A DNA stretch of 64,000 nucleotides from Minisyncoccia bacterium (lineage in GTDB: Bacteria > Patescibacteriota > Minisyncoccia > UBA6257 > JAAZHW01): the NCBI GenBank assembly GCA_049720475.1, contig JBNASH010000035.1, positions 84,015 through 148,014 of the forward strand. Direction: 5' to 3'. Below are positions 1-49,393 of this stretch, piece by piece. Below the pieces are notes generated by a model, which was given only the letters and a program-made list of their open reading frames with translations, made no database searches and was not told the origin of the DNA. A program made the position numbers and the translations under genes. Every line of letters begins with the position of its first letter. Position 1 is the first letter of the stretch.

Positions 1-798
1 ATGGTCCGGTTTTTACTTATGATGAAATCGAAAATAGCCATGACTAAAAAAATAAATAAAAAAATTTCGGTTGGTATTTTTGACTTTACTGACTGTGAAG
101 GTTGCCAAGTAAAATTAGTTTCTTTGCGAGAAAAATTTTTGAAACTTGAGGAAAATTTTGAAATTCTTGCTTGGCGTTTAGGTCAAGAAAAGTTCAACCC
201 CGGCCCATATGATATCGCGATTGTTGAAGGAACACCAATTATGCCAGAAGAAGTGGAATTGCTTAAATCCATTCGGGAAAATTCTAAAATTCTTATTGCT
301 TTTGGAACCTGTGCAGCTTTGGGTGGCATTCCCGCCATTTTATCTGAAAAAGAAAGACAATATTGGTACCAAAAAATTTACGGTCCGAATTACAAACCGC
401 GTGGCATTGAAGCCCAACCTCTTTCCGCTTATGTGCCAGTGGATGTAATTATTAACGGCTGTCCAGTTGATGAGAATGAAATTTTAAAAATTTTTGAAGC
501 CTTCATCGCTGGCAAAAAACCTTATCCCTATGATTATCCAGTTTGCTATGACTGTAAAAAAGCCGGCAATGAATGTCGCCTTCTTAAAGGATTGCCTTGT
601 TTAGGACCGATAACTAAAAATGGTTGTGGTGCGATTTGTATTTCCGGTGGTTCAGCCTGTTATGGTTGCTTTGGTCTTCGCGATGGCGCCAACTTTGAAG
701 CTCTTATCAAAATTTTAGAAAAAATCGCCGATAAAAAAACCGTCGCTTTATATCTCTCAATGTTTCACAAAAAAGATATTAAATATGATAACCAATGA
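1..798 (+). CDS. [NiFe] hydrogenase small (delta/HoxY-MvhG-like) subunit; true start probably an internal ATG at 19-24 or 40-42
   Basis: N-terminal CxxC motif (FDFTDCEGCQ) and multiple C-terminal Cys clusters (CYDCKKAGNEC, CGAICISGGSACYGC), typical of Fe-S-carrying small subunits of cytoplasmic group-3 hydrogenases. Its end overlaps the large-subunit start by 14 nt. Confidence 0.75.
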   Translation: MVRFLLMMKSKIAMTKKINKKISVGIFDFTDCEGCQVKLVSLREKFLKLEENFEILAWRLGQEKFNPGPYDIAIVEGTPIMPEEVELLKSIRENSKILIAFGTCAALGGIPAILSEKERQYWYQKIYGPNYKPRGIEAQPLSAYVPVDVIINGCPVDENEILKIFEAFIAGKKPYPYDYPVCYDCKKAGNECRLLKGLPCLGPITKNGCGAICISGGSACYGCFGLRDGANFEALIKILEKIADKKTVALYLSMFHKKDIKYDNQ

Positions 799-1978
799 AT
801 TTATTGCTAAAATTGAAGGTCATGGCAATTTAAAAGTCGATTGGAAGAATAATAAAGTAATTTTGGAGGTGGCTGAGGGAGAAAGATTGTTTGAAGGATT
901 GTTAGTTGGCCGACCAGCTGAAGAAGCCTATTGGGTCACTCCCCGCATTTGTGGTGTCTGTCCAATTGCTCATAATTTAGCTTCTATTTCAGCTTTAGAA
1001 AATGCCGCCCAAATTAAATTATCCGAACCAATGAAACTTTTAAGAGAACTAATGCAATGCGCCCAAATGATCCAAAGCCACGCCCTGCATCTATTTTTCT
1101 TAGCTCTGCCTGATTATCTAGGTATTGATCGCGGCACAGAATTAAAAAATAAAAATCCGAAAGCCTTCCAAAATGCTTTAGCTTTAAAGGCTTTAGCTGA
1201 TAATTTAGCTTTTGTTTCTGCTGGACGTAATGTCCATCCAACAACTCCAACTCTCGGTGGCTTCAATAAATTGCCAACTCAAAAAGATTTGAAAAGAATG
1301 CTCTCGGAATTAGAAAAAACCGAAGAAATTACTCATTGGCTGGAAAAATTCTGTGAAAATTTAAATTATCCAGATTTAAAAGTTGATTTGGAATTAGTAG
1401 CGATTAAAAACGATTTAATTTATTCTAGCAAAGGTGAAACAGTATCAATAAATGATTACAAAACAGCAATTGAAGAAGAAATTAGAGAGTTTTCAACTGC
1501 CAAGTTTTCTAAATTCCATGGCCGAGAAGTAATGGTTGGCGCTTTGGCGCGTTTATATTTCGAAAAATCCCAAAATAAAAATTTGGATTTTCAAAATCCA
1601 TTTCATAACAACCTTGCTCAAGCCATCGAAATTAAACTCTATCATCAAAAAGCCCAAAAAATTATTAAAAAACTTTTGGAATTTGATCTAAAAAACATTC
1701 CTCATCAAGCTAAGCCAAATTGGCAAAAAAACTCTCAAGGTATTGGTGCAGTAGAAGCACCTCGCGGCGGCCTCTATCATGAAATTCACGTTGATGAAAA
1801 AGGCTTTATTACTTACATAAACATCATTACGCCAACCGTCCAAAATCTTACTTCAATCGAAAAAACCGCTCAATTACTTATTGAACAACACGCCTCTCGA
1901 TCGCAAAAAGAAAAAGAAAAATTGCTTAATATGCTGGTAAGGGCTTATGACCCTTGCATCACTTGTTCAGTGCACTAA
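785..1978 (+). CDS. [NiFe] hydrogenase large (catalytic) subunit
   Basis: N-terminal Ni-Fe ligand motif R-I-C-G-V-C-P-I-A-H (RxCGxCxxxH) and C-terminal DPCITCSVH (DPCxxCxxH). The protein ends exactly at the His with no C-terminal extension. Confidence 0.85.
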   Translation: MITNEFIAKIEGHGNLKVDWKNNKVILEVAEGERLFEGLLVGRPAEEAYWVTPRICGVCPIAHNLASISALENAAQIKLSEPMKLLRELMQCAQMIQSHALHLFFLALPDYLGIDRGTELKNKNPKAFQNALALKALADNLAFVSAGRNVHPTTPTLGGFNKLPTQKDLKRMLSELEKTEEITHWLEKFCENLNYPDLKVDLELVAIKNDLIYSSKGETVSINDYKTAIEEEIREFSTAKFSKFHGREVMVGALARLYFEKSQNKNLDFQNPFHNNLAQAIEIKLYHQKAQKIIKKLLEFDLKNIPHQAKPNWQKNSQGIGAVEAPRGGLYHEIHVDEKGFITYINIITPTVQNLTSIEKTAQLLIEQHASRSQKEKEKLLNMLVRAYDPCITCSVH

Positions 1979-2005
1979 AATTGATATTCTCTAAAAAAAG
2001 AAAAG

Positions 2006-2030
2006 GGCTCGCCTAGCGAGCCTTTTGTTT
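2006..2030. terminator. bidirectional intrinsic terminator (GGCTCGC-cta-GCGAGCC + TTTTGTTT)
   Basis: Perfect 7-bp GC-rich stem followed by a T-run, sitting between convergent genes. The stop codon and C-terminus of the minus-strand ORF lie inside it. Confidence 0.5.
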
Positions 2031-2681
2031 ATTTTTCTTATTGAAATTTCTCAGAGCTTCTTTTGTCAACTGCAATAATTTATCTGCTTCTTTTTGAGAA
2101 ATTTTTTCAATAACTTTGCGGAAATGAACAGTCACCCAATCGCCTTCTTTTAAATCTAAATCTAGCTCATTTTGAACAATCAATTCAACTTTCGGACCCA
2201 AAGTCAATTTGTCCTTTTTTAATGTTTTCGTAATTGGTTGATAAATTACCCACCACTCCCTATTTGAAATTTTGTCGCTAATTTTAGCTGGATGAACAAC
2301 ACAATCATCAACTAACTCTTCAACAATTTGATGCATTTTTATCTGAATGATAGGAATCAAAGTCGAAGCATTATGAATCCACTCCTCTCCTTTTAATTCT
2401 GGATTGCCTTTCCAATAAAAAGAAACGACTTCTTCATCAAATGGTTCTTTGTGATTTAACTGGGCGATTCGGCGATAAAAATCATAACTTAAAAGGTTTT
2501 TTAAAATTTTTTCAATTCTTTCCGCTTCACCTTTGCCATGACGGAAATAATCATACAAATCATTGGAAAATTTAAGCAAACGAGCTTTCTCGCAAACATA
2601 AGAATATTTAGCAGCTAATTTTAATCCTTCCCCTTCCATTTTATCCCTCCTTTTTAAAGAGCTTTTAGTGATGGCTGTCAT
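2013..2681 (-). CDS. hypothetical protein downstream of and overlapping hypC (17-nt overlap)
   Basis: 222-aa ORF co-directional and translationally coupled with hypC. No recognisable motif. Confidence 0.4.
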   Translation of the reverse strand: MTAITKSSLKRRDKMEGEGLKLAAKYSYVCEKARLLKFSNDLYDYFRHGKGEAERIEKILKNLLSYDFYRRIAQLNHKEPFDEEVVSFYWKGNPELKGEEWIHNASTLIPIIQIKMHQIVEELVDDCVVHPAKISDKISNREWWVIYQPITKTLKKDKLTLGPKVELIVQNELDLDLKEGDWVTVHFRKVIEKISQKEADKLLQLTKEALRNFNKKNKQKAR

Positions 2682-2895
2682 GATGACTGGCCTTTATAAA
2701 ATTTAATATTTTTTTCGCTTCTTTCAAGGGTAGTTTGTGAATCGCCAAATCGCCGTGGGCCAAAACAAAATCGCCTTTTTTTGGTTTTTTCTCTTTTATT
2801 AAAGAAATATCGACAATATGAGTGTGACCTTCTCCTTGAACTACTGCCTTATCCTTTTCAATTTTTATAATTCTCATTGGTGTTGCCAAGCACAT
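2665..2895 (-). CDS. hypC: hydrogenase maturation factor HypC/HupF
   Basis: Begins MCLATP (the canonical MC(L/I)A(I/V)P HypC N-terminus with the essential Cys2), and its small size (~76 aa) fits HypC. Confidence 0.8.
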   Translation of the reverse strand: MCLATPMRIIKIEKDKAVVQGEGHTHIVDISLIKEKKPKKGDFVLAHGDLAIHKLPLKEAKKILNFIKASHHDSHH

Positions 2896-2963
2896 AAAAT
2901 TTATTTATTTTCATTATAATATAATTTATGCTATAATAGAATAGTCGAATAAAAAGAGGGTCA

Positions 2964-3263
2964 ATGAAAAAAGTTCTTGGTAAAATAGTTTTAATTTTAG
3001 CGATTGTTGCTTTTTTATTAAGTATTGCCATTATGGTTTTAAATAAAAAAGCTCCTCTACCACAAGAACAAATTGCTTTAAAAAATTGTTTAGAGAGCGG
3101 CGGCCAGGTTGTTTCTGCTTCCTGTTGTCTAAACACTTCTAATTTCCCTGATACTTGCTTAATTGGCGCTTGTGGTTGCGCACCAGACAAAAGCCACATA
3201 GTCCAAATCTGTGATTGCGGTCCTAATAAATGTTTTGATGGTAAAACTTGTGTAAATAGATAA
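2964..3263 (+). CDS. small membrane-anchored/secreted cysteine-rich peptide (10 Cys in a ~55-aa C-terminal domain)
   Basis: Strong SD (AAAGAGGG) 5 nt upstream of the ATG, an N-terminal hydrophobic helix, then a Cys-dense domain (C-x11-CC-x9-C-x4-C-x-C-x12-C-x-C-x4-C-x6-C). The overlapping antisense ORF 2858..3199 has no such support. Confidence 0.55.
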   Translation: MKKVLGKIVLILAIVAFLLSIAIMVLNKKAPLPQEQIALKNCLESGGQVVSASCCLNTSNFPDTCLIGACGCAPDKSHIVQICDCGPNKCFDGKTCVNR

Positions 3264-3265
3264 TT

Positions 3266-3294
3266 TTGACAAAATCATCTTCAAAGATTAAAAT
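3266..3294 (+). promoter_or_regulatory. sigma70-like promoter for tRNA-His (TTGACA-17-TAAAAT)
   Basis: Consensus -35 TTGACA at 3266-3271, a 17-nt spacer, TAAAAT at 3289-3294, and the tRNA starts 12 nt downstream. Confidence 0.4.
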
Positions 3295-3306
3295 TATTTT
3301 AGCAAT

Positions 3307-3383
3307 GGTGGCCTTAGTTCAGCGGCTAGAACGCCTCGTTGTGGCCGAGGAGGTCAGGGGTTCAAATCCCCTAGGCCACCCCA
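3307..3383 (+). tRNA. tRNA-His (anticodon GUG) with encoded G-1 and encoded CCA
   Basis: Cloverleaf folded by hand: acceptor stem GTGGCCT/AGGCCAC, extra 5' G pairing with discriminator C73, anticodon loop TTGTGGC, T-loop TTCAAAT. Confidence 0.9.
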
Positions 3384-3477
3384 AACCTCCTAATCTCAAG
3401 GGGGTTTTTCTTGCTTAATTTTTAAAATTAATTAAACTTAAGGCGGAACTTAAAAATTTCAAAAAAGGAGGAATAGA

Positions 3478-3891
3478 ATGAAAAAACATGATTGTTTTTT
3501 AACTATTCAAATTTTAGGAGAGGAGATCATTGCTCCCGTCATTGAAAAAATATTAAATAGTAGAATTACTAACATTCCCATTGATACTAAAAAAATCAAC
3601 AAAACAAGTAATGGATGCCAGAAAATTTATGAAGTTAGTACCAGTTATAGATATTATTGTCGTTTCAATTTATACCAATTAATTTTCAATATTCATCGGA
3701 GATTTATCCCCGATCATAATGACTTTACTGCTCAATTTATTTTCGAATTTAAACTGGGTAAAAAAGAGCCTGTTTTCCGCAGTTGGGAAGCCTACAGATT
3801 CCAGGAAGAAAAATTAAGTCAAGAAGAATTAAACGCCATTAAAAATTGCCTCTTAGAATTCTTTGGCAATTTTTCAGAAGGAAGCTTTTAA
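3478..3891 (+). CDS. hypothetical small protein (island gene 1)
   Basis: Strong SD AAAGGAGG 8 nt upstream, and an intrinsic terminator follows. Confidence 0.5.
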   Translation: MKKHDCFLTIQILGEEIIAPVIEKILNSRITNIPIDTKKINKTSNGCQKIYEVSTSYRYYCRFNLYQLIFNIHRRFIPDHNDFTAQFIFEFKLGKKEPVFRSWEAYRFQEEKLSQEELNAIKNCLLEFFGNFSEGSF

Positions 3892-3909
3892 AAATTATAA
3901 TTTAATAAA

Positions 3910-3940
3910 GAGGCCCTATAAAAGGGCTTCTTGTTTTTTT
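3910..3940 (+). terminator. intrinsic terminator (GAGGCCCT-ataaa-AGGGCTTC + T8)
   Basis: Hairpin plus a TTGTTTTTTT run. Confidence 0.5.
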
Positions 3941-3996
3941 AAAAAATCATGATAAATTATAGATGGCATTTAAAAAATTAAAGAAGGGGGTTTCGC

Positions 3997-4365
3997 ATGA
4001 AAAGAAAAATATTTATCGCCTTAGTAATTTTAATAATGATTCTTTTGACAATTCTTTTTGTCATCGTCAGGAAAAAATCCGATAATCTTTCAACCACTCA
4101 AGTATCTCTTGATCAAAAAAAGGAAATAATTGATCTAAAAAAGCTCGATCCGGACATACGATTAATTTGGCTTTCTGATGAAAACGGCAAAAATTTAAGA
4201 CCAGTTTTAATCCGTATTGGTATTAGCGATGGCCAATACACAGAAATAAAAGAAATTCTTTATGGCGAAATAAAAGAAGGTGATTTTGTTGTTACGGGCA
4301 AAACAACTCCTCAATCCAGCAGTTCCCAACAGGACATTAATAGAATTTTTAGAAGTTTAAGATGA
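3997..4365 (+). CDS. small membrane-anchored protein whose C-terminal half resembles the beta-barrel domain of HlyD/MFP-family periplasmic adaptor proteins
   Basis: Strong SD (GAAGGGGG). An N-terminal TM helix, then LRPVLIRIGISDGQYTEIKEILYGEIKEGDFVVTG, the characteristic C-terminal motif pattern of membrane fusion proteins. It is far too short for a full MFP. Confidence 0.45.
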   Translation: MKRKIFIALVILIMILLTILFVIVRKKSDNLSTTQVSLDQKKEIIDLKKLDPDIRLIWLSDENGKNLRPVLIRIGISDGQYTEIKEILYGEIKEGDFVVTGKTTPQSSSSQQDINRIFRSLR

Positions 4366-10567: not shown

Positions 10568-11869
10568 TTAAGGCGTAACTTTTGGAATGGCTGTCGGTGT
10601 AATCGATGGTGTTGGTGAATTCGTTTGTTCAGAAATTGGTGGATTTAAACTATAAAGCGTTTTTGTTTTTTCATCGTAGAAGAAAAGGGTTTTATCATCT
10701 TTGCTTATTTTTATATCAGTGATTTGGAAAGTATTGTTATTTAATAATTGCGCCTCCATTGTTTCCAAATTAATCTGATAAAGCATTTCGTCAATTGACA
10801 CTACTCCCATATAATAAGCATCGGGCCAAACACCAGAAAAAACCGGATTAACAAAAATACTGCAGTAAAGAATGGGTGAAGAATGGGCAAAAACACATTT
10901 CTCCGGCAGAGTAATATTAGGAAAATCTGCCAAAACATAACCATCTTTATTAATTAATTGTAATTTTGGACTCACTCCATTAGCACTGGTAGTGAAGAGT
11001 AAACCGTATTGTCCCTTATCATCCCACTTTAAAATTAAACCGTAACCACTCACAAAAGGACTAAATATTTTATTTTTTAAATCAAATTTCAAAACAGTTG
11101 TCTCGCTTAAGCCACTGGGTTTTTGCGTAATATAAGCGGTCGTGGTGGTTGGCCAGAGTAAATTAATATCACTTGCCGCTTTAAAATCCATTAAAATTTT
11201 CCGATTGGCTAAATTTTTATCTAACTGGGCTAAATAGTTTGTTTCCTTAAAATTCTCTTGGTAATAAAGTGGGCTATCAGAATAATAGTAAAGTAAGTTT
11301 TCGCCATCAGGGGACCAAGCAGCAGTTTTAATATAAAGGTCCAAATTTTTAACTTCGCGCGTTTGAATATCTAAAATGCTAAAAGATGGTTTAGTTGCAC
11401 CTTCTGCCACATATTTAATTAAAATTTTATCTTTTGCTGATGGTTGAACAGATAAAACGTTGTTAAAATTAACGCCCAAATCTCTTTTTTCTTCTTTAAT
11501 CTGATTCTGGGAAAAATCAATTTCAAATAATCCTTCTTTGGTTAGATATTGCAACGTTGAAGTCCCACTCTGCCAAAAAGCCAAAATTTCTTTATTAATT
11601 AAGTTCCGCAAAATTGGCTGCTGTTTAATATTGGTAGCGGAAGTACCAGAAGTTTGCTCTGGCAAAAATGGGGTGGCAGTAATTGTAGGCAAGCCAACGC
11701 CTCCGCCTTCTTGCTGTATTTCCTCTCCAATTTGACTCGCTGGTTTTAAATAAAACCAGTAAAAAACAAAGGCAATAATACCTAAGATAAGAAGAATTAA
11801 AATTGTAGTTAAAATCATTTTTTTCATATGTTTATTCTGGTAATTTAATCGCCTACTGACTTCTGACAA
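10568..11869 (-). CDS. secreted/anchored beta-propeller (TolB/WD40-like repeat) protein with Pro/Thr-rich C-terminus
   Basis: N-terminal TM/signal. Repeated short beta-strand units (e.g. AAWSPDGENLLYYYSD). C-terminal TNSPTPSITPTAIPKVTP. Confidence 0.5.
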   Translation of the reverse strand: MSEVSRRLNYQNKHMKKMILTTILILLILGIIAFVFYWFYLKPASQIGEEIQQEGGGVGLPTITATPFLPEQTSGTSATNIKQQPILRNLINKEILAFWQSGTSTLQYLTKEGLFEIDFSQNQIKEEKRDLGVNFNNVLSVQPSAKDKILIKYVAEGATKPSFSILDIQTREVKNLDLYIKTAAWSPDGENLLYYYSDSPLYYQENFKETNYLAQLDKNLANRKILMDFKAASDINLLWPTTTTAYITQKPSGLSETTVLKFDLKNKIFSPFVSGYGLILKWDDKGQYGLLFTTSANGVSPKLQLINKDGYVLADFPNITLPEKCVFAHSSPILYCSIFVNPVFSGVWPDAYYMGVVSIDEMLYQINLETMEAQLLNNNTFQITDIKISKDDKTLFFYDEKTKTLYSLNPPISEQTNSPTPSITPTAIPKVTP

Positions 11870-12483
11870 ACTGAATATAATTTATTACATACTTCTATAC
11901 ATTTAGATGATAGATCCGAACTAACTTTGCTACAAGCGTCCCTAATACAACTTTCTCTCAGCTTGGACAGGTTTTCTTGAATTTTTTTATCTTCTTCTTC
12001 CTTTAATTGTTTATCGCTTAATTTTGGTTGAATTCCTGGTAAATTTAATTTTACTAAATCAGGGTTAATGGTTCTTAAAATCAAAACCGATCCGAGCAGT
12101 AAAACCAAACCAATAATCGCATCTTTAATTTGCTCACGCGCTTCTTTTTGTTTTGAAGTATTATCAGCGCTTGTTGCATATTGGATACCCGCAATAGTAA
12201 TTTGAATGATGACCGCAATTACGCCCGCATAAACTGCTAACTTATACAATCCAGAAAGATAGTCAGCCGGAGTTGAAGGACAACTGGGCAAAAATGGTTC
12301 TAGAGAAATTTCCATACAGCGCGAACCACCAAACCAATCTTCCGAAGTAGAAGCACTTGTATTGGTAGAAGCTGCATTACTAACTGTCTGGGGAGCGACT
12401 TGAACAGCCTGTTGAGCTAAAGCCACATTACTTAAAACAATGAACAAGAAAGTAAATAAAATATAGGGGTTTATTTTTTTCAT
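11845..12483 (-). CDS. VirB2/TrbC-like pilin candidate (signal peptide + two hydrophobic helices)
   Basis: Signal peptide ending ALAQQA. Two TM helices (LYKLAVYAGVIAVIIQITIAGIQYA and AIIGLVLLLGSVLIL) separated by a short polar loop, the T4SS pilin topology. It is adjacent to the VirB4-like gene. Confidence 0.35.
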   Translation of the reverse strand: MKKINPYILFTFLFIVLSNVALAQQAVQVAPQTVSNAASTNTSASTSEDWFGGSRCMEISLEPFLPSCPSTPADYLSGLYKLAVYAGVIAVIIQITIAGIQYATSADNTSKQKEAREQIKDAIIGLVLLLGSVLILRTINPDLVKLNLPGIQPKLSDKQLKEEEDKKIQENLSKLRESCIRDACSKVSSDLSSKCIEVCNKLYSVCQKSVGD

Positions 12484-13202
12484 TTTAAATTAATATTTAT
12501 ACTCGCGCTTGCTCTTATAATAATATCTCTTAAATCTTCAATGGTTAATTGAATTGAATAGTTTTTCTCTCCTTGCTCGGCTTTAGGCAGTATCAATATT
12601 CGCTCGTTATCTAAATCTGACACTCTTTCATTATTAATCCGCCACATATAATGCAATTGATTTGGATCATCACCGCCAAAGAAAAATGGCACAGCCTCAA
12701 GTTGTAATAAATCCCCAGTTGTTGAATATTGACCTTGAAGTATTTCTTTCTCTCCTAAAACTCTAAAGAAAATGGCTGGTTGCGCTAAATTAATTGTTAT
12801 TGTTTTTTCAATCGGCTGACTTAAAACTGAAGTTAAAATTGAAACTTTTACAGTATAAGCGGTTTTATCAAAATCTTTTAGACGAAATCTAATTGATTTT
12901 AGACCCTGTCCTTCTCCTATTAAATTATCATTTACATACCATCGATATGTCCATTGATCAGAATTCAAATAACCTCCACTTTTTGAAGAATAGATGAATG
13001 GTTGAACTGATGTTTTAATAATCGCAAAGCGAGCTGGCAACGCCTTTCCTTGATATTCAACCGGAACCATTCCATCACTTTCCCAAGTTAAATAAATAAA
13101 GTTTTCGGGGGTTTTTGAAGATTGCGCAAAAGCAAAACTTCCCCCTATCATTAAGAGTGCCAACGCTAATAAAATTGAATTTTTTTGTTTATTGTTCTTC
13201 AT
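12480..13202 (-). CDS. secreted hypothetical protein (signal peptide)
   Basis: MKNNKQKNSILLALALLMIGGSFAFAQ signal. ATGA start/stop overlap with its neighbour. Confidence 0.5.
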   Translation of the reverse strand: MKNNKQKNSILLALALLMIGGSFAFAQSSKTPENFIYLTWESDGMVPVEYQGKALPARFAIIKTSVQPFIYSSKSGGYLNSDQWTYRWYVNDNLIGEGQGLKSIRFRLKDFDKTAYTVKVSILTSVLSQPIEKTITINLAQPAIFFRVLGEKEILQGQYSTTGDLLQLEAVPFFFGGDDPNQLHYMWRINNERVSDLDNERILILPKAEQGEKNYSIQLTIEDLRDIIIRASASININLK

Positions 13203-13683
13203 TTTTTTGCGAACTAAGATTATTCGCCGTCTCTAATGCCTTGCCCGCTGCCGCTAATTCAGGTTTTATTTTCCCAGCGGCTTGTAATCCTTTTGCCGCC
13301 ATCTTTAATTTTTCCGGATGTTTTTGTTGGAGATATAAAAAGACGATTGCGGCAGTTTTTGTAGGTAAAACTCCAACAAAAGGGATTAAATCAACGGCAC
13401 TAGCCAACAACATAAATTCTCCTCGCAACCCCTTCATAAACAACCATAAAGTCAACGAACCACCACACAAAATATTTACCGCCCAACTAATAATTGTCCC
13501 AAATCCTGTTAACTGGAGCGCATCAACCAAATCTGATAAAACAGCAGCTGGCAATGGCCACATAAAGAATTCAATTGCAGAAATTTTCGGACCTGGAGGC
13601 GATTCATCAATTTCCTCTTCAGCTGACATTGTCCCTTCTTCCTCTTCTTGATTTAATTGTAAATCTTCATCTTCATAGGCCAT
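13189..13683 (-). CDS. polytopic membrane protein with an acidic N-terminus (T4SS-cluster component)
   Basis: Acidic cytoplasmic N-terminus followed by 3-4 hydrophobic helices. Confidence 0.45.
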   Translation of the reverse strand: MAYEDEDLQLNQEEEEGTMSAEEEIDESPPGPKISAIEFFMWPLPAAVLSDLVDALQLTGFGTIISWAVNILCGGSLTLWLFMKGLRGEFMLLASAVDLIPFVGVLPTKTAAIVFLYLQQKHPEKLKMAAKGLQAAGKIKPELAAAGKALETANNLSSQKNEEQ

Positions 13684-13721
13684 ATATATTATAAATAAAT
13701 TTTATTAAAAGTTTAAGGTTA

Positions 13722-15521
13722 TTAGGAAAGGCTTTTATCAAACATTTCCTTGGCTTTTTGGATTTGAAGCATTTGAGCAGGATTGGTGGTAATAATTTGA
13801 TCCTCAGTATAAGAAGCAATTACTTTAATAGCCACGTGTTTTGCCCCAGCGAAAAATATCCCTTCTCCCACATTAGCGCTTAAAAGCAGCTGTTTTTCTG
13901 CTTCGGTTAAATTAAATGTTTCAGCCACTACATCAATGGAGGCGGGCGATTGTTTTAAGAGTAATTGCAAAGCGGAGTTTGTAATAATAGGTTTGCCTTG
14001 GGGAGATTTAATAAAATCCTCCACATCTTGGGTAATAGTTGTAACACCCATATGATACTTGCGACAACGTTTGACTAAGCCAAAAAGAAAATCTGCACCA
14101 GCTGGATATTTCATCATCCACCAAGCTTCATCAACAATTAAAATTCTTTTCTTCATTTGGGAACGGATTAAATTCCAAATAAAGTTTAAAACCATATACA
14201 TAGCAATTGGCCGTAGTTCATCTTCTAAATCGCGAAGGGCAAAAACAACTAAACGATTATCAATATTAACATTGGTTGGATTGTTAAGAAAACCAGCAAA
14301 GGTGCCCCGGGTAAACTTAAATAATCGATCTGCCAATTCAGTACCTCCTTCCATATTTTCTAACACAGCCTGCAGATCTTCCATTAACGGCGGGGTTAAT
14401 TTTGTAAAATCGCTTTCGGGTGTAATATCGCGTGAAGCATAAGTTTCAGCAATTGCTCTATCTAAAATCCCAATCTGCTCTGAAGTTAAATCTCCCAACA
14501 TAATTCTTAATAAGCCGGTAAGATTCAAAATGTTTGATTTTAAAACCTCTTCCGGCGTTTCATCTGGCCGCGGAGGCGGTAAATCAAAAGGATTAATGTG
14601 ATGCTCAGAAGTTAAGGAAATATTTATAAACGAGCCACCAACGGTCTCTGCTAAATGTTGATATTCTTTTTCTGGATCAATAATAATTACGTCTGTTCCC
14701 ATCATCAAAGAACGCAAAACTTCTAATTTGCAGAAATAGGATTTACCACTACCTGATTTCGCGAAAATCACCATATTGCCATTTTCCAAAGAAAATCTAT
14801 CAAAAATAATTAAGCTATTATTATGGCGATTAATACCATAAAAAATTCCTTTGTCCGAAGTTAAATCTAGCGAAATAAAAGGGAAAAAGGTGGAAACCGG
14901 TGAAGAATTTAAAGTAGAATGAACATTTAAATAATCTTTATTCAAAGGAAAACAAGACAACAAACCCTCTGACTGTTGGAAAAGCGCAGGTTTTATATAA
15001 ACCATTCTCCCCTCTAAGAAATTAATGATTTTTTGCTCAATGGCTTCTAATTCTTTAAGATTAGAGGCGTAAATAGTTATATAAACTCCTACCTCAAATA
15101 ATTTCTCACGTGCTTGTTGCAAAGCATCACGTAAATTTTCTAAATCTTGATAAGCAGTTTCTAAAATCGGGTCTCTAACCAATCCTTTTTCTTCTCTTTC
15201 CAAAAGTTGGGCTTCCACTTGAGCGACCTTCCTTCTTAATTGTTTCAAAGCCACTCCAGTATCAACGGGATGGATAAAAATGGAAACATCAACTGTTTGG
15301 TCAATGTTTAAAACTGGCGAAAACCAACCAGAAGTAAGATATCGAGGATAAGAAATAATATAGTGGGTTTTAGTATATAAATCGCCCAATCGGACGTAGG
15401 TTGATTCAATTTCTAAAGCCGGCGGTGTTAAAATTTCTCTAATAGTTTGCAACCCCGTCCGGGACGGTTTGGGAATTTTTATTTCTTCATCTTTTTTTTG
15501 TGAAAATGGTAAAATTGGCAT
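13722..15521 (-). CDS. VirB4/TrbE/CagE-family T4SS ATPase, C-terminal 599-aa portion (conserved domain + Walker A/B)
   Basis: Walker A FAKSGSGKS and a Walker B ILIVDEAWWM (the DEAW motif typical of VirB4). An N-terminal YTKTHYIISYP...W region like the CagE_TrbE_VirB domain. Confidence 0.8.
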   Translation of the reverse strand: MPILPFSQKKDEEIKIPKPSRTGLQTIREILTPPALEIESTYVRLGDLYTKTHYIISYPRYLTSGWFSPVLNIDQTVDVSIFIHPVDTGVALKQLRRKVAQVEAQLLEREEKGLVRDPILETAYQDLENLRDALQQAREKLFEVGVYITIYASNLKELEAIEQKIINFLEGRMVYIKPALFQQSEGLLSCFPLNKDYLNVHSTLNSSPVSTFFPFISLDLTSDKGIFYGINRHNNSLIIFDRFSLENGNMVIFAKSGSGKSYFCKLEVLRSLMMGTDVIIIDPEKEYQHLAETVGGSFINISLTSEHHINPFDLPPPRPDETPEEVLKSNILNLTGLLRIMLGDLTSEQIGILDRAIAETYASRDITPESDFTKLTPPLMEDLQAVLENMEGGTELADRLFKFTRGTFAGFLNNPTNVNIDNRLVVFALRDLEDELRPIAMYMVLNFIWNLIRSQMKKRILIVDEAWWMMKYPAGADFLFGLVKRCRKYHMGVTTITQDVEDFIKSPQGKPIITNSALQLLLKQSPASIDVVAETFNLTEAEKQLLLSANVGEGIFFAGAKHVAIKVIASYTEDQIITTNPAQMLQIQKAKEMFDKSLS

Positions 15522-15524
15522 ATT

Positions 15525-16232
15525 TTATTCTATGGTTGGTTCTTCTAATTGTTCTAGCTCGGCTGTAATAGCCAATCCGACCCTTTCTTGTTTTTCAGGA
15601 TTATAAAAATTGTAATACAACTCAATTAATTCCGGGGTTTTAAGACGAATGGCATTCAACCCCATTGCTTTCAAAGCTGAAATAACAGCAGCCACCCGGT
15701 GGTATAGTTGCATTTTGTTATTAACAAATTGCGTCTCTTTATCAACTTCTTGTTGGGGAACGCTGCTCTTTTGTTTACCAAAAGGCAATGGCAACTTTTG
15801 AAAAATTTGTGTTAATGGATTAGCACTACTTGTTGCAGAAATAAGAGAAGGAGAATAAGGTACAACAACATAAAATCTCTTTGTCATAATATTAGTGCTT
15901 TTGACAAGCTCATCTATAAAATTGTAATATTCCTGAATCTGCAATTTTAGAAGCTCATTTTTTTCATTCTTTTCCAACTCTTTAATTTTGTTTAAATAAT
16001 TATCCAGATTAATTTTTCTAGAATGGACAAGGATTTGCAATGGAAAATCTAAAGAATTTAAAAGGCTTTGGTAGGCATTCAAAACTATCTCCTGCTCGGT
16101 TTCTGATAACAAATCAAAGTTAACACCCGACACCATCAAAACGGCTCTTAACGAACCATCTTTTAAAATAACGCAATCTTCTTTGATGGTTTCAATATCT
16201 ATAAATTTTTCAGTGGAGGCAGTACTAATCAT
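15525..16232 (-). CDS. probable N-terminal segment of the same VirB4-like ATPase, in the same frame and separated by one TAA stop + AAT from the downstream ATG
   Basis: Frame arithmetic: both ORF ends are congruent mod 3, with a 3-nt gap. The VILKDGSLRAVLMVSGVNFDLLSETEQEIVLNAYQSLLNSLDFPLQI pattern resembles VirB4/TraE N-termini. Combined length ~835 codons matches a full VirB4. Confidence 0.5.
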   Translation of the reverse strand: MISTASTEKFIDIETIKEDCVILKDGSLRAVLMVSGVNFDLLSETEQEIVLNAYQSLLNSLDFPLQILVHSRKINLDNYLNKIKELEKNEKNELLKLQIQEYYNFIDELVKSTNIMTKRFYVVVPYSPSLISATSSANPLTQIFQKLPLPFGKQKSSVPQQEVDKETQFVNNKMQLYHRVAAVISALKAMGLNAIRLKTPELIELYYNFYNPEKQERVGLAITAELEQLEEPTIE

Positions 16233-16636
16233 AATTGTTTATCTTTTTCTTCTAATTCTTTAGCAATTTTTTCCAATTCTTCGACCGTTAATCTTTTTTT
16301 CTCTTCTTGTTGAGAAACAACTTTTTTCGTTTCTTTTAATAAAGGTTTTGTTGCTTGGGGTTTTTTCCAAGTATATAAGCGCGGATTAATATAAAATTTT
16401 AAGGCATTAATCAAAACTTTGGAAAGGGGTTGTTCATTAACTTTCACAAACGCTAAAGCAATCGAAAATAAAGCAATGACAATACTAACTAAAATCCACA
16501 AACCCTGAGTGAGCACAGAATTCAAAATAAAAATCAAAACCCCGCCCCCTCCCAAAAATAAAAATTGACGAAGGGTTAATGGCCCAACAATTTTACTTTC
16601 TAAATTAATAAATTGTGGTACTTGAGTAGTAGGCAT
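16229..16636 (-). CDS. small two-TM membrane protein (VirB3/PrgI-like candidate)
   Basis: 135 aa. Two adjacent hydrophobic helices near the N-terminus. Immediately upstream of and overlapping (ATGA) the VirB4 N-terminal segment, the usual VirB3 position. Confidence 0.4.
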   Translation of the reverse strand: MPTTQVPQFINLESKIVGPLTLRQFLFLGGGGVLIFILNSVLTQGLWILVSIVIALFSIALAFVKVNEQPLSKVLINALKFYINPRLYTWKKPQATKPLLKETKKVVSQQEEKKRLTVEELEKIAKELEEKDKQL

Positions 16637-16646
16637 ATTTTAATTC

Positions 16647-17906
16647 CTAAAATTTTAACTTTCTTAAATCAATAACATTTTCCGCCGGAATATCTGCTGT
16701 TGTCTCATTTTTAGATTCAACTTTTTCTTCTTGTTTCGGTTCTTCATCTTTCGGTATGAAAGATTTATTTTCTGGAGAAGGCGTCTGTTTGGCTTGTATC
16801 TCTTCTTGTTTCGATTCTAACTTTTCTTCTGGTGGGATTGGGGTTGTTTCTTTCATTTCTGAAGAAACAGCTTCTTTTGGTAGGAACGCTTCAACAATGG
16901 GGATTGGATTGACATCTTGAGGTGTTTGAAACGTTGAAGGCTCTATTTTTTGCTCTGTTATTGGTGGCGGTGGAGCAATTGGCTCACTTGATAATTTAAT
17001 ATCTGGTTCTTGTTTCTTTTCAACAAATTCTCTTTGTTCAAAAATTGGTTTTTCTATAGTACTAATCGGCTTGATTTCTTCTTCATGCTTTAATTCAATT
17101 TCTGAAACCACTTTTTCTTTCGCGGGTTTTACATCTTCAAAGCTAATCCGCCAAGGGGAAGATTCTTCCAAAACTGGTTTAAATTCCTCTTCTTTGCCAA
17201 TAATCATTGGCTCTGTTGGTTTTTGAGTCTCTTGTGTGGGTTTTTTAAATTTGAAAAACGAAAGAAAAGTTCGCTTTGGTTTTTCTTCTTGTTGAGTTGT
17301 TGAGGTTGATTCTTGGATCGGAGGTTGAACAACAGCATCTAATGGCTTGGGTTCTTCTTTTTTGCTAGTCTCTGATAATGGTTGAATTCCGATATTTAAT
17401 GTGCCAAGTGGTTCTTTTTGAGTTTCAATATTTTCTGGTGTTTTAGCTATTGATTCTTCTGTTTCGGCTATTTCCACTTTTTTTAATTCCGGCTGGCTTT
17501 CTTTTTCTAATTTTTCCATTGCTGAAAAACGATGATAAATTTTTTCTAAATCTTCTTTAAAAGGCGAGATGAATTTAGATTCTATTTTTAAAGCAATCTC
17601 CTTCGCCAATACCGGATGAATACCCAAATCTATTAATTTTCCACTTAAAAAAGCAAGGAAAACACTAGGATTTAATTTACCAATAAAAACATCGTGGGTT
17701 GCTCCGACCATCGCATCAAATTGATCATCGTTTAAATTATTTTGTCTTTCCAACTCTAAAAAATAGTCAGCCAATTCATTGCCTAAAAGTATTTTTTGAA
17801 TTTTATCAGGCAACTTATCTAATCTTTGCTGCATTTCTTCTAATTCATTATCCATCTCTTTGCTTTCGTTATTAGAATTTTTTACTGGAATATTTGTATC
17901 ATTCAT
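16647..17906 (-). CDS. acidic, E/K/P-rich low-complexity (probably disordered) protein
   Basis: Composition read directly; no TM segment. Confidence 0.5.
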   Translation of the reverse strand: MNDTNIPVKNSNNESKEMDNELEEMQQRLDKLPDKIQKILLGNELADYFLELERQNNLNDDQFDAMVGATHDVFIGKLNPSVFLAFLSGKLIDLGIHPVLAKEIALKIESKFISPFKEDLEKIYHRFSAMEKLEKESQPELKKVEIAETEESIAKTPENIETQKEPLGTLNIGIQPLSETSKKEEPKPLDAVVQPPIQESTSTTQQEEKPKRTFLSFFKFKKPTQETQKPTEPMIIGKEEEFKPVLEESSPWRISFEDVKPAKEKVVSEIELKHEEEIKPISTIEKPIFEQREFVEKKQEPDIKLSSEPIAPPPPITEQKIEPSTFQTPQDVNPIPIVEAFLPKEAVSSEMKETTPIPPEEKLESKQEEIQAKQTPSPENKSFIPKDEEPKQEEKVESKNETTADIPAENVIDLRKLKF

Positions 17907-17929
17907 ATTTTTATTTTTATTTGTTCTTT

Positions 17930-19843
17930 TTATGTTATTGGCTTTCCACTCGAACTAACCAAAGTTGGTCCTTCTAAATTTTTCTTAAACCACATTCGAC
18001 CATTAAAACCACTTTTTATTTTCTTTCTAAATTCTTTTTTGGTCTCCTCATCCATTGTTTCATAGGCGCGTTTAATTTCTGAAGTTAATTGGTCTAATTT
18101 AGGTAAATCAAGATTTCTCAGCTCGCTCGCTGCCTGTTCAGGATTTGTTTCAAGCTTTAATTGTATAACGCCCGAAAGAACAATAGGATCTTTAATTTTA
18201 TCCAGTTTGATACTCTCAACTTCTATATCGGCTTTTCTAATAGCTTTAATCACTTCCTCGGACTTACCAGTTTTAACCGCTGATTGAACATCAGGATGCC
18301 ACTCGGGATGATCTTTAATGATTTTCTTATAATCTTCTTTACTATATTTGCTTAACAAAGGCAAGGCTTTATCTTTATTCGAATCATCAATCCCGCCTTT
18401 TTTAGCTAAAACAGCAAACATCGCCGCTCTTTCTTCAGGTATTAAAGCAGAATTGGCCATTTGTTTTAACTGCTCTACACTCACATTTTCATATTTCTTT
18501 ACTCTATTACTCCATTCCTTATTCTTAACCTCCTCGGCTTTGCGAGAAACATAACGACTAGCCATACCCAAACCGGTAAGACTAATAGCCGCTCTTGCTA
18601 ATTCATTCTTACTAGCCGCCTTCTCTAAACCAGTTGCTGGAACATTGGCCGCTCTTAACGCCCATAAGGAAGCCTTTCCTTTAACAGCTCCTGATGCTTT
18701 CCTTCCTGTTTCTTTGGCAAAATCCAAAGTCTTCTTAGCTATTTCTACACCCATTTTTTCTCCAGCTATTAATCCCGCCACAATAAATCCTGCCACTAAA
18801 AACATCTGCATTACGCTCTGTAAATTGTACATTACAGAACTCATACCACCCGCTGTGAGTGTCCCTGGAATATGCAATTGCTTAACATGCGAAGCTGTTT
18901 CAAGAGCCAAATAAACGAAAAATCCCATTACTGGTGCTACAAAACACCACTGCAAAAATTTACTCCACCATTGTTTGGATATACCAGCCGGTGTGCCAGG
19001 AATTGAAATTAATGATATTACCCAGGCCAGCGGTGCAAAAATTAATAAAATCCATAACCAGAAAAGACGCACAAACAAAATACCAACCAAAGCACCAAAA
19101 ATTATAATGACTAAAAAGCTAAAAACAATTGTGAAGGCTAACTTTGCTATACCCATCAGAGCAGTTTTCTCTTCCGCCCCTACCATTTGCGCTTGTATCC
19201 ATGATGTCCATTCCGCCTCAGTCGAACTAGCTGTTGGCGTAGCAACAACCTGACTTTGCATAAATGTTTGCAACGTCAAAGCATCGGCTAAAGCATTGGT
19301 AAATCTTACCCCGCCCAATCCAGTAGGATCTGCCCCTAGGGAGCCAAAAATAAAATATCTGAAAAACATATTTGAAAAATCAATAATAGCCCCGCCTATC
19401 ATTAAACTAAAATTAATCAAAATTGCCATAATAATCATTTTGACTAACAATCCTTTTGTTTGTCTTGATTGCACTCTTAAAATATAAGAAAAGGCGATAT
19501 AAATTAAAATTACGATAAACAAAATATTTGCAAAATCACGAGCAATTCTCCAACCAGTTTGAACTACAGGCAGAGTAGTAAATGCCGAAGCATTAACTAC
19601 TAAAGCCAAAATTTTTGCTTCTAAAATAATAATTTGGGAAGCAAGAAGAGCAATAAGATGGGCTACCCAACTAAAAATAGAATAGATTGCTGTTGAGGTA
19701 AAATCACCAATACTAAAAAGAGAGAAAGCGTGTGTTTTGAAAATTATGAAAAGATTAATAAACAAACCAAAAATCAACCCTTGAATTAAAGAGATTTTTC
19801 TAAATTTTATTTTTTGAATGATGCTTTTTATTCTTTTAAACAT
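17930..19843 (-). CDS. VirB6/TrbL-like polytopic inner-membrane protein with a hydrophilic C-terminal extension
   Basis: At least 7 hydrophobic helices in the N-terminal ~370 aa, then a ~260-aa charged C-terminal domain, the VirB6-family architecture. Located in the T4SS-like cluster. Confidence 0.5.
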   Translation of the reverse strand: MFKRIKSIIQKIKFRKISLIQGLIFGLFINLFIIFKTHAFSLFSIGDFTSTAIYSIFSWVAHLIALLASQIIILEAKILALVVNASAFTTLPVVQTGWRIARDFANILFIVILIYIAFSYILRVQSRQTKGLLVKMIIMAILINFSLMIGGAIIDFSNMFFRYFIFGSLGADPTGLGGVRFTNALADALTLQTFMQSQVVATPTASSTEAEWTSWIQAQMVGAEEKTALMGIAKLAFTIVFSFLVIIIFGALVGILFVRLFWLWILLIFAPLAWVISLISIPGTPAGISKQWWSKFLQWCFVAPVMGFFVYLALETASHVKQLHIPGTLTAGGMSSVMYNLQSVMQMFLVAGFIVAGLIAGEKMGVEIAKKTLDFAKETGRKASGAVKGKASLWALRAANVPATGLEKAASKNELARAAISLTGLGMASRYVSRKAEEVKNKEWSNRVKKYENVSVEQLKQMANSALIPEERAAMFAVLAKKGGIDDSNKDKALPLLSKYSKEDYKKIIKDHPEWHPDVQSAVKTGKSEEVIKAIRKADIEVESIKLDKIKDPIVLSGVIQLKLETNPEQAASELRNLDLPKLDQLTSEIKRAYETMDEETKKEFRKKIKSGFNGRMWFKKNLEGPTLVSSSGKPIT

Positions 19844-19855
19844 AACCGGTTAATT

Positions 19856-21412
19856 TTAGTATTGTGGTGGTGGTGATGGCTCTCTGCCACCACAATATTT
19901 TTGGCAACTTGTTAAACTAGTAAAATCACCATTAGGATCTAATTCACAAAGTCCCTCAACTTCGTTACAACTATAGCGGTTTTCAGATGGTGGAGGTGAA
20001 GGTGTAATCGAAGGATAACAAACTCGACTACATGAATCATAATCACTATAACTGCCATTGGGATCAGCTACACAAATTTGCAATTCTGTATCGCATTTAA
20101 AACGAAGCGTGGATCCAGTACAAACTGCTTCACAGCTTTCTTTAGAAAAATATGGTCCATTAGCATCAATTTCGCAAACTTTTGATCCGCCATAAGTTTT
20201 ACAGGCATACCGCAAATTAAGCGATGGGCCAGAATCACCCTTTTCTGGCAAAGCCAACAATCCCTTACCATACCACTTACCACCAATTAACAATTCCTTA
20301 GCTGATTTTAACAAACGACTTATTAGTGCCTGAGCAATCATTTCTGAATAACCCTTAAGATCAGCTGAAGTTAGAAAATATGAGTCTGATTTCTCTAATT
20401 GATTGGTTAAAACTTTTGAAGTTAAATCTGATTTGGCTTCGCCCGGAATACTCACTACCTTTTCTACACAGATTTCTTGACCGGTAGCAGGATCTTTTTT
20501 GGTTTTAATACACCACTCTGTTGGTTTATAGCCACTCTGGGTTTTTTTCTCGGCTTCTTGCTGGGATTCAGATAATTCATTCTTTAAAGATTCTTGAGTC
20601 ATTAAATATGCTCCGAAGGCATTATTCCAGGGATAAAAGGATTCTTCAAAAGCAAGCCACCCGCCATTAGAAAAATTATCATAAAAAGATTCGATATTGC
20701 TTACTACCCTTGATAAAGTACAAGTTGGAAAAGGAGGTTTACCAGGCAAGGTTGTCCCAACTCTAACTAAATAACGAAACGGCTCGCACAACTCCGAAAA
20801 AGGTGAATTTTCGATAAATCGACCAAAAGCCTCATCCATCACATCGCCGAAAAATTGTCGCCAATTAGTAACAAACTGTGGATCGCCAGTTGTTCTTCCG
20901 CTAATCCAATCAACTGCGTTAGAAACCAAACGATCCATAAATGTTTTCACGGCAATTCTGAGCAATAATTTTGTCATTTCAGCCATTTTTGCTTTTAATG
21001 TTGCTTTCTTTTTAGCTACCCATTCTTTACACTGCTGGGTAGTATCGGCGCCACCAGTATTAATAATACATTCACCCGAAATAGCCGTCCCACCAATGCC
21101 CAAAAAACTCAACGTACGACCTAACATTTGACAAACTGGATTTAAAACTACGGACAAAGCGGTATTAATCCAGCTTGTTATTTTTTGATAAATACCCGTA
21201 GAACAAACCATCACCTCGCCCCAATATTCGGCTATATTCTCATATACCGCTGGCTCCTGTTCCAAAACCGAATCTAGATCTTTTGGCGAGGGCAAAGGAA
21301 CTTCGATTAAGGTTTCTGTTTGGGCTTTAACTTTTAAAGCATTAACTATGCCTTCCAAATTAAGAAGAAGAACAGCAATTAAAGTGATAATGGCAAAAGT
21401 TTTTTTACTCAT
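19856..21412 (-). CDS. secreted protein with three C-terminal Cys-rich ~30-aa repeats (C-x7-9-C-E/A/L-x-D-x-N-G-x-[YF]-x-[SD]-x3-S-C-x3-C) and a PPP tail
   Basis: Signal peptide MSKKTFAIITLIAVLLLNLEG. The repeats CKTYGGSKVCEIDANGPYFSKESCEAVC, CDTELQICVADPNGSYSDYDSCSRVC and CNEVEGLCELDPNGDFTSLTSCQKYC are read directly. Confidence 0.55.
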   Translation of the reverse strand: MSKKTFAIITLIAVLLLNLEGIVNALKVKAQTETLIEVPLPSPKDLDSVLEQEPAVYENIAEYWGEVMVCSTGIYQKITSWINTALSVVLNPVCQMLGRTLSFLGIGGTAISGECIINTGGADTTQQCKEWVAKKKATLKAKMAEMTKLLLRIAVKTFMDRLVSNAVDWISGRTTGDPQFVTNWRQFFGDVMDEAFGRFIENSPFSELCEPFRYLVRVGTTLPGKPPFPTCTLSRVVSNIESFYDNFSNGGWLAFEESFYPWNNAFGAYLMTQESLKNELSESQQEAEKKTQSGYKPTEWCIKTKKDPATGQEICVEKVVSIPGEAKSDLTSKVLTNQLEKSDSYFLTSADLKGYSEMIAQALISRLLKSAKELLIGGKWYGKGLLALPEKGDSGPSLNLRYACKTYGGSKVCEIDANGPYFSKESCEAVCTGSTLRFKCDTELQICVADPNGSYSDYDSCSRVCYPSITPSPPPSENRYSCNEVEGLCELDPNGDFTSLTSCQKYCGGREPSPPPQY

Positions 21413-29474: not shown

Positions 29475-29489
29475 CGACCGAATATTTAG

Positions 29490-29835
29490 TGGAGATGGCG
29501 GGAATCGAACCCGCGTCGGCGAAAAAGTTGATTTTCAAGCTTTCCAGACAATCAGCCGATTTATCTTAAGGGTTAATATTTAAAATCGGCAAAATTATTA
29601 ACCCCCGTCTTTGGTGTTAGGTTGCTTTTCTAGCCAAAGACACCTAGAAAAAGCCGAGCTCGATAATTTGACACCCTTCTGGCCTATCGAGCATCAGCCA
29701 GTCGGATGGGCTTATGCTAAAGCAAAAGCCAAGTTTCTGCTAAAATTGGCAGTTTTTCTTTCTCGCTTTTTTACGAGGTAGCGAACCCTCGGTCTGACTT
29801 GAAAATGCTTTTTCGCCTCGAGGCCAATCATCCCC
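29490..29835 (-). ncRNA. ssrA: tmRNA (ssrA)
   Basis: 5' end GGGGAUGAUUGG... (G3:U70 alanine identity pair) and a 3' tRNA-like end GCGGGUUCGAUUCCCGCCAUCUCCA, near-identical to E. coli ...GCGGGUUCAACUCCCGCCAGCUCCA. A tag-like reading frame ...GCCAAUUUUAGCAGAAACUUGGCUUUUGCUUUAGCAUAA is present. smpB lies immediately downstream. Confidence 0.85.
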
Positions 29836-36177: not shown

Positions 36178-36334
36178 GAGGGGTCTTTAAGTGGTTAATT
36201 AGCTAGAAATAAAAATCTGGAAAGTTAAAGTGTATAAAATGGCCATTTATAAAAATATACAAAATCTGAGTCTTTTTTACAAGTTTGACTCTGCCAAGCA
36301 TCAAATTCAAAAAATAAATTTAATCATTTATCAG

Positions 36335-36407
36335 TGGGCGCAGATGGATTCGAACCATCGACCCCAGACTTATAAGGTCTGTGCTCTAACCGCTGAGCTA
36401 TGCGCCC
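36335..36407 (-). tRNA. tRNA-Ile with anticodon UAU (AUA-decoding)
   Basis: Hand-folded: acceptor GGGCGCA/TGCGCCC, D-arm GCTC-AGCGGTTA-GAGC, anticodon stem CAGAC/GTCTG, loop CTTATAA (34-36 = TAT), T-arm GATGG-TTCGAAT-CCATC. The body resembles tRNA-Ile. Confidence 0.8.
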
Positions 36408-48937: not shown

Positions 48938-49393
48938 AAGATCAGAAAACCCTGCCGGTGGGCAGGATTTTCTGATCTTTGTTTCTTCAATAAGAATAAG
49001 CCGAATTCTGTACCCATAAAGGGCGGCAACCATTTATCTTGACGCGGTATTGCTACCACGTTCAGAGCGATCTACCTGTCGCTTGCGCGACAACTTGATC
49101 TTGCACCAGGAAGGGTTTGCCACCTCTAATTGTCACCAATTAGAGTTGGGAGCTCTTACCTCCACTCTTTTCACCCTTGGTCACCTCAAAAAATACTGAG
49201 GTGGCCGGTATAGTTTCTGTGGCACTTTCCCTAATCACGTTTAAACGTGATCGGTTGCGGTTAGCAACTTCCTTCTTCTGCTATCTTCCTAAGAAAATAG
49301 CAGGGTGTTCGGACTTTCCTCTGTTGATGTTTATTATTGATGATTGCTCATCTCAAAACACCAACAGCAGTTGCCTACTTATTGAAGAAACTG
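48938..49393 (-). ncRNA. rnpB: RNase P RNA (bacterial type, minus strand) including 3' terminator hairpin 48938..48980
   Basis: Reverse complement contains the P4 strands GAGGAAAGTCCGAACACC (cf. E. coli GAGGAAAGUCCGGGCUCC) and GGGTACAGAATTCGGCTTA (cf. ACAGAACCCGGCUUA). Also GGGAAAGTGCCACAGAAA, GGTAAGAGCTCCC, and a P1 pairing AGTTTCTTCAATAAG/CTTATTGAAGAAAC. A long perfect hairpin + T-run sits at the 3' end. Confidence 0.75.

Follow-up and report, generated by a model that had tools for sequence, protein, structure and literature searches.

The window analyzed here is a stretch of 64,000 nucleotides (nt) from a Minisyncoccia bacterium of the phylum Patescibacteriota (GenBank assembly GCA_049720475.1, contig JBNASH010000035.1, positions 84,015 to 148,014), and it carries on its minus strand two adjacent open reading frames (ORFs) that resemble the two parts of VirB4, an ATPase of type IV secretion systems (T4SS). 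The upstream frame, ORF-N (15525..16232), encodes 235 amino acids (aa) and the downstream frame, ORF-C (13722..15521), encodes 599 aa. As read from the sequence, the junction (15519..15527, minus strand) consists of the TAA stop codon of ORF-N at 15527-15525, an AAT spacer at 15524-15522 and the ATG of ORF-C at 15521-15519, and the minus strand across it runs ...ACC ATA GAA TAA AAT ATG CCA ATT... ORF-N (16232..15525) and ORF-C (15521..13722) together form one frame of 837 codons with a single stop between them, the AAT spacer itself adding no second one. A first-pass annotation made from the sequence alone had described two same-frame ORFs parted by TAA-AAT before an ATG and together about 835 codons long, the length of a VirB4; the strand readout, the ORF translations and the end-to-end alignment of the concatenated products with full-length VirB4 proteins bear this out. 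It had presented the arrangement as a virB4 gene interrupted by an in-frame stop, to be read as a genuine split into two polypeptides, a recent pseudogene, a programmed readthrough site or a sequence error.

ORF-N is free-standing, directly upstream of the VirB4-type ATPase gene and downstream of a VirB3-like gene. The likeness of its product to a VirB4 N-terminus, proposed in the first-pass annotation, was recovered in profile searches, where ORF-N matched positions 4-176 of the 792 in TIGR00929 (VirB4_CagE), positions 3-121 of the 752 in the NCBIfam model of the CD1110 family (NF045971) and positions 102-257 of the NCBIfam VirB4_plasma model (NF045975), which describes the fused VirB3-VirB4 of mycoplasmas. 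A match to NCBIfam NF041427 (TrsD/TraD) was found at E 3.9e-13 and 49.7 bits, against a curated cut-off of 200 bits, and the Pfam family PF26593 (TraC-like) is recorded in the database for a protein identical to ORF-N (P0001). Comparison with TrsD of plasmid pSK41 gave an hhalign probability of 80% (E 1.4e-5, 176 columns) and a BLASTP E-value of 3e-8. The database holds 1557 homologues of ORF-N, and the best 120 of them, which come from many Patescibacterial lineages and reach down to 44% identity, measure 164-247 aa, with none of full length. Sequence searches of solved structures reach the ATPase domain only, and the N-terminal part was therefore compared by fold: when an AlphaFold2 model of ORF-N alone was submitted to Foldseek against the PDB, the top 14 hits were all TrwK/VirB4 chains and the next lay above E 0.1. 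ORF-N is best described as TrsD/TraC-like and as the N-terminal module of VirB4 in detached form. The first-pass annotation had allowed that the 235-aa product might belong to an unrelated standalone family; the family is indeed free-standing, but it is related to the VirB4 N-terminus.

ORF-C is a short VirB4-type ATPase of the CD1110 family. It scored 374.2 bits against NF045971, above the cut-off of 325, although it covers only positions 179-734 of that model, positions 3-121 sitting on ORF-N, so that ORF-C does not span the whole CD1110 model with its N-terminal module as a single polypeptide. The corresponding matches were to positions 241-726 of the 792 in TIGR00929 and to positions 292-893 of NF045975, with further Pfam matches to P-loop_TraG, AAA_10 and DUF87. 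The translation contains a Walker A motif (GSGKS) and a Walker B motif (ILIVDEAW) at positions that are invariant in alignment A4, which combines fused homologues with sequences of the C-terminal part only. The solved VirB4 C-terminal domain (4AG5) matched ORF-C at E 9e-46 and places the beginning of the ATPase domain near residue 224; ORF-C holds the second half of the N-terminal domain followed by the Walker A/B ATPase domain. Its nearest distinct homologue is 96% identical, the best 120 homologues are 569-619 aa long except for three truncated records, and a protein identical to it, from a Minisyncoccia bacterium, is labeled 'VirB4-like conjugal transfer ATPase, CD1110 family' at NCBI.

The two products are colinear with a single VirB4. 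The NCBIfam VirB4 models are covered first by ORF-N and then by ORF-C without overlap, and on the fused mycoplasma model this order extends upstream to a PrgI/VirB3-like small membrane protein of 135 aa (16229..16636, minus strand; Pfam PrgI, E 8e-12), with PrgI, ORF-N and ORF-C at positions 36-122, 102-257 and 292-893, respectively. We searched the concatenate of ORF-N and ORF-C against 1.84 billion representative proteins and found that full-length proteins of 780-900 aa run over the junction in one continuous alignment, with 29-35% identity and query ranges such as 11-820 or 4-828; a fused Patescibacterial protein of 797 aa has 54% identity. When fused proteins were aligned, the region around the junction proved variable in length and was bordered by two conserved blocks, ELYYNxYNP and (D/E)(L/I)(I/L)(A/T)P. 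Another alignment (A3), which joined the concatenate with N-only and C-only sequences, was discarded as MAFFT had stretched the N-only sequences over the whole length. AlphaFold2 modeling of the concatenate (67 aligned sequences, mean predicted local distance difference test (pLDDT) of 73, predicted template modeling score (pTM) of 0.52) predicted folded modules at residues 7-214, 260-450 and 485-800, whereas residues 215-259, i.e., ORF-N 215-235 and ORF-C 1-24, have a pLDDT below 50. The best PDB matches of this model were full-length TrwK/VirB4 chains of plasmid R388 (E 1.7e-27, 851 columns). In TrwK the N-terminal domain comprises residues 15-400, is wrapped by VirB3 and mediates VirB4 dimerization at the membrane (PMC9259494). 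On the predicted fold, the cut lies inside this classical N-terminal domain, in a flexible linker between two sub-modules. The stop had been placed exactly at a domain junction by the first-pass annotation, which holds insofar as it falls in a linker of variable length that is predicted to be disordered, but the break is inside the VirB4 N-terminal domain and not at the border of the ATPase. Full-length VirB4 proteins (TrwK of R388, those of the CD1110 type and the fused forms of Harrisonbacteria and Colwellbacteria type) are colinear with ORF-N plus ORF-C in sequence as well as in predicted fold; they are single polypeptides of about 780-830 aa, whereas the window encodes two, broken in the linker.

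To these comparisons we added 80 loci with ORF-N homologues, fetched from GTDB species genomes; 78 of these have a VirB4 gene immediately after the ORF-N homologue. The two genes stay neighbors across relatives, and each covers a part of full-length VirB4 that the other lacks. All relatives between 100% and 44% identity are split, which answers the question of fused or split orthologues that the first-pass annotation had raised, and of its readings the genuine split into two polypeptides is the correct one, given that the split is kept among homologues while frame and spacing are not. We therefore regard the locus, with high confidence, as a chromosomal type IV secretion locus of Patescibacteria (candidate phyla radiation) in which VirB4 is encoded as two separate polypeptides, ORF-N and ORF-C. 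Many of the fetched loci with Patescibacteria-type T4SS genes (L004, L011, L013, L015 and others) are titled 'uncultured Gammaproteobacteria bacterium' or 'Bdellovibrionales', and the taxon labels of such bulk-submitted bins look unreliable.

TrsD genes beside virB4 have been described across this phylum. According to the consulted parts of the study by Quinonero-Coronel et al. (2025; PMC12102498), TrsD outnumbers every other T4SS component in Patescibacteria, with 2,272 homologues of which 1,664 lie beside virB4; it is remotely homologous to the VirB4 N-terminus and is handled there as a component of its own, to which no function is assigned. The same text states, citing Wang et al. (2023), that TrsD is essential in Candidatus Southlakia epibionticum, and that the TrsD homologues of Gracilibacteria are not linked to virB4; text searches of it revealed neither split VirB4 halves nor a TrsD-VirB4 fusion. 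The published TrsD and VirB4 pairs, as presented there, resemble the window in phylum, in the gene pair itself, in the PrgI/VirB3 and VirB2-like pilin genes nearby, in their chromosomal location and in the lack of a relaxase seen nearby; nothing essential differs, the in-frame spacer of 3 nt being particular to the window genome. The split VirB4 pair is thus an ordinary and already published property of Patescibacterial T4SS loci, and calling the gene interrupted was misleading: the split is old, more than 1000 homologues have it, and the two genes share a frame by coincidence.

The same gene order is found in the MPF-FATA systems of the staphylococcal conjugative plasmids pSK41 and pGO1. There TrsC-TrsD-TrsE (TraC-TraD-TraE) measure 135, 227 and 672 aa, compared with 135, 235 and 599 aa in the window, and in pSK41 (NC_005024; L091, 25492-28602) the split point is that of the window, ORF-C residue 3 aligning with TrsE residue 2. 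pSK41 differs in that it is conjugative and encodes a relaxase as well as a VirD4 coupling protein; the spacer there measures 14 nt, and identities are low (23-33%). The coincidence of the split points hints at a fission common to the pGO1/pSK41 lineage and Patescibacteria. The VirB3-VirB4 fusions of the Mbov_0397 family in mycoplasma integrative and conjugative elements and of Campylobacter plasmids show that prgI/virB3, N-terminal module and ATPase, in this order, make up a unit whose gene borders can be either fused or separated; they represent the opposite extreme, with all parts fused, whereas the window has three genes.

Among the other explanations, the one that survives best is that ORF-N is an independent accessory protein, with ancient kinship to the VirB4 N-terminus and a separate role outside VirB4. 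It would fit the weak sequence similarity of ORF-N to VirB4 models, the treatment of TrsD in the consulted parts of PMC12102498 as a separate component of merely 'remote homology' and no assigned function, and the Gracilibacterial homologues reported there away from virB4. Nevertheless, what ORF-N supplies is exactly what is missing from ORF-C, split forms have close relatives that are fused, and the alignment of full-length proteins runs through the junction unbroken; we consider an accessory role improbable.

The remaining explanations concern the stop codon itself and are decided by the junctions of the relatives. An independent Logan assembly (SRR29396569; L081), 100% identical to ORF-N, has the same 3-nt spacer (TAA AAT ATG) as the window. 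The relative with 88% identity (L082) has one A more (TAA AAAT ATG, 4 nt), the two with 80% identity (L083, L084) also have 4 nt, the two with 70% identity (L085, L086) have 1 nt and the two with 67% identity (L087, L088) have 12 nt; an intact single ORF was not found in these close relatives. Across the 78 loci, the relative frames 0, 1 and 2 occur 21, 30 and 27 times (chi-square p = 0.45), the spacing ranges from overlaps to spacers of 509 nt, the upstream gene ends in TAA, TAG or TGA, and 43 loci have either an overlap or a spacer of at most 10 nt. Because frame relation and spacing drift freely between relatives, the shared frame in the window is best read, from this comparison, as an accident of the 3-nt spacer. 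The stop is conserved and the frame is not, which effectively rules out a recent nonsense mutation, an assembly error and selected readthrough.

Programmed stop-codon readthrough would yield some fused VirB4 of 837 aa beside the two separate products. The in-frame arrangement with no second stop in the spacer is what it would require, 13 of the 78 relatives likewise have a single in-frame stop, and, judging from the fused homologues, a covalent link is tolerated. On the other hand, the frame is not conserved, being shifted by +1 already in the 88% relative, and the stop is the usual one for this genome: TAA terminates 41 of the 55 window genes, and TAA followed by A, rightly named a strong termination context in the first-pass annotation, is the commonest context, at 26 of 55. 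We found no suppressor tRNA in the window and no Rfam element at the junction, in scans that did not include folding of the RNA 3' of the stop. Readthrough was rejected and appears very improbable. Even less can be said for a recent nonsense mutation, i.e., a full-length virB4 pseudogenized by a point mutation to TAA. It has in its favor that only one stop parts the ORFs, which lie in a common frame, and that fused versions of about 790 aa exist in another Patescibacterial subclade; yet every close relative from 88% to 67% identity also carries the stop, with spacers that give other frames, the best 120 homologues of each half have split sizes (truncated records aside), and both halves are well conserved, ORF-C being 96% identical to its nearest distinct homologue; ORF-C also has its own ATG in a typical A-rich start context. 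A sequencing or assembly error can be dismissed almost entirely, for although the junction lies in an A-rich run (TAAAAT) of a kind in which indel errors are common, the independent Logan assembly has the same bases, an indel here would shift the frame rather than remove the stop, and in the relatives, which stem from other samples, a stop is always present at the junction.

Fused ORFs were present in two of the 80 loci (L005, 746-3106, 786 aa; L034, 788-3160, 790 aa). With the L005 protein as query, over 115 clusters of fused forms (775-809 aa) were recovered in genomes of Harrisonbacteria, Colwellbacteria and Parcubacteria type, so that a Patescibacterial subclade with a fused form of about 790 aa is a small addition to the known picture. 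A protein of 596 aa (P0434) that we considered as a split form within the fused clade was rejected as a start-site mis-call on an open ORF of 790 aa; at L089 (GenBank MHJN01000006.1) the annotated gene is 2501-4291 (596 aa), and the ORF is open from 1919 (1919-4291), 790 aa including the TrsD-like part. Neighbor-joining analysis of the ATPase part placed the fused forms of Patescibacteria within the split ones, with three split loci (L017, L044, L090) inside the fused group. The tree is rough, has no support values and gives only a hint on the order of fission and fusion; as a lead only, it suggests repeated fission and re-fusion at the linker. It is conceivable, though somewhat less likely than not, that in the course of Patescibacterial evolution a single disordered linker of VirB4 was the site of repeated fission and fusion, with an ancestral fission perhaps shared with pGO1/pSK41, re-fusion in one subclade and renewed splitting in a few of its members; in-frame junctions with a single stop, such as that of the window, would then be intermediates one mutation away. 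The consulted parts of PMC12102498 do not describe such a history.

The three genes prgI, ORF-N and ORF-C are probably co-transcribed. The TGA stop of prgI overlaps the start of ORF-N as ATGA, and together with the TAA-AAT-ATG junction this spacing suggests that translation may be coupled from gene to gene, which would favor a 1:1 yield; Shine-Dalgarno analysis was uninformative on coupling, as 45 of the 55 window genes have no recognizable site. Through non-covalent association, the two pieces may then restore a VirB4 N-terminal domain that PrgI/VirB3 would anchor. Several points limit this reading of the locus as a whole. With spacers above 50 nt in 27 of the 78 relatives, the family as such cannot depend on coupling. 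That the two products associate physically is deduced from fused homologues and the conserved neighborhood. The confidence of the AlphaFold2 model is moderate, and at this pTM the packing of the modules is not established by the model. Finally, the TrsD match of ORF-N (49.7 bits) is far under the curated cut-off of NF041427 (200 bits).

The locus should be annotated as two genes, and not as a pseudogene or a frameshifted virB4, which matters little beyond annotation. Set beside the account in PMC12102498, TrsD is best read as a detached VirB4 N-terminal module, which would give a concrete role to the most abundant T4SS component of Patescibacteria. Fused and split forms occurring in nature point to a linker at which VirB4 tolerates both states, and could help structural and genetic work on monoderm-type T4SS.

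The pair belongs to a cluster of same-strand genes (10568..21412, minus strand, from the ORF list) that includes unannotated ORFs of 518, 637, 419, 164, 240 and 433 aa. None of these six matched Pfam or NCBIfam, and they are probably further T4SS parts. The cluster also encodes a T4SS pilin-like protein of 212 aa (11845..12483, minus strand; Pfam T4SS_pilin, E 2e-8) that has the same gene order in relatives, and the order of the cluster partly recurs in the close relatives, with synteny in L081-L088 as far as these loci include the ORFs. Promoter-like and terminator-like sites in the cluster occurred at or below the shuffled expectation and are uninformative on internal signals. Profile scans of the window proteins revealed no relaxase near the cluster. 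The locus is chromosomal, with yidC, RNase Y, rsmA, pcrA, rtcB, ftsH, leuS, ftsK, gatA and ligA in its flanks.

Elsewhere in the window, a transfer-messenger RNA gene lies at 29487-29835 on the minus strand (Rfam, 146 bits; absent from the ARAGORN output for that sequence) and a class A RNase P RNA gene at 48982-49386, also on the minus strand. A tRNA-Ile gene with anticodon TAT (UAU) was found at 36334-36407 (minus strand); most bacteria read AUA by a lysidine-modified CAU tRNA, and a UAU isoacceptor is uncommon. The 1400-aa ORF at 39356-43558 (minus strand), whose sole Pfam match is a lamin-tail domain in two stretches, probably encodes a large surface protein. At the beginning of the window (1-1978, plus strand), two ORFs resemble the small and large subunits of NiFe-hydrogenase (Oxidored_q6, NiFeSe_Hases), here in a Patescibacterium with a small genome.

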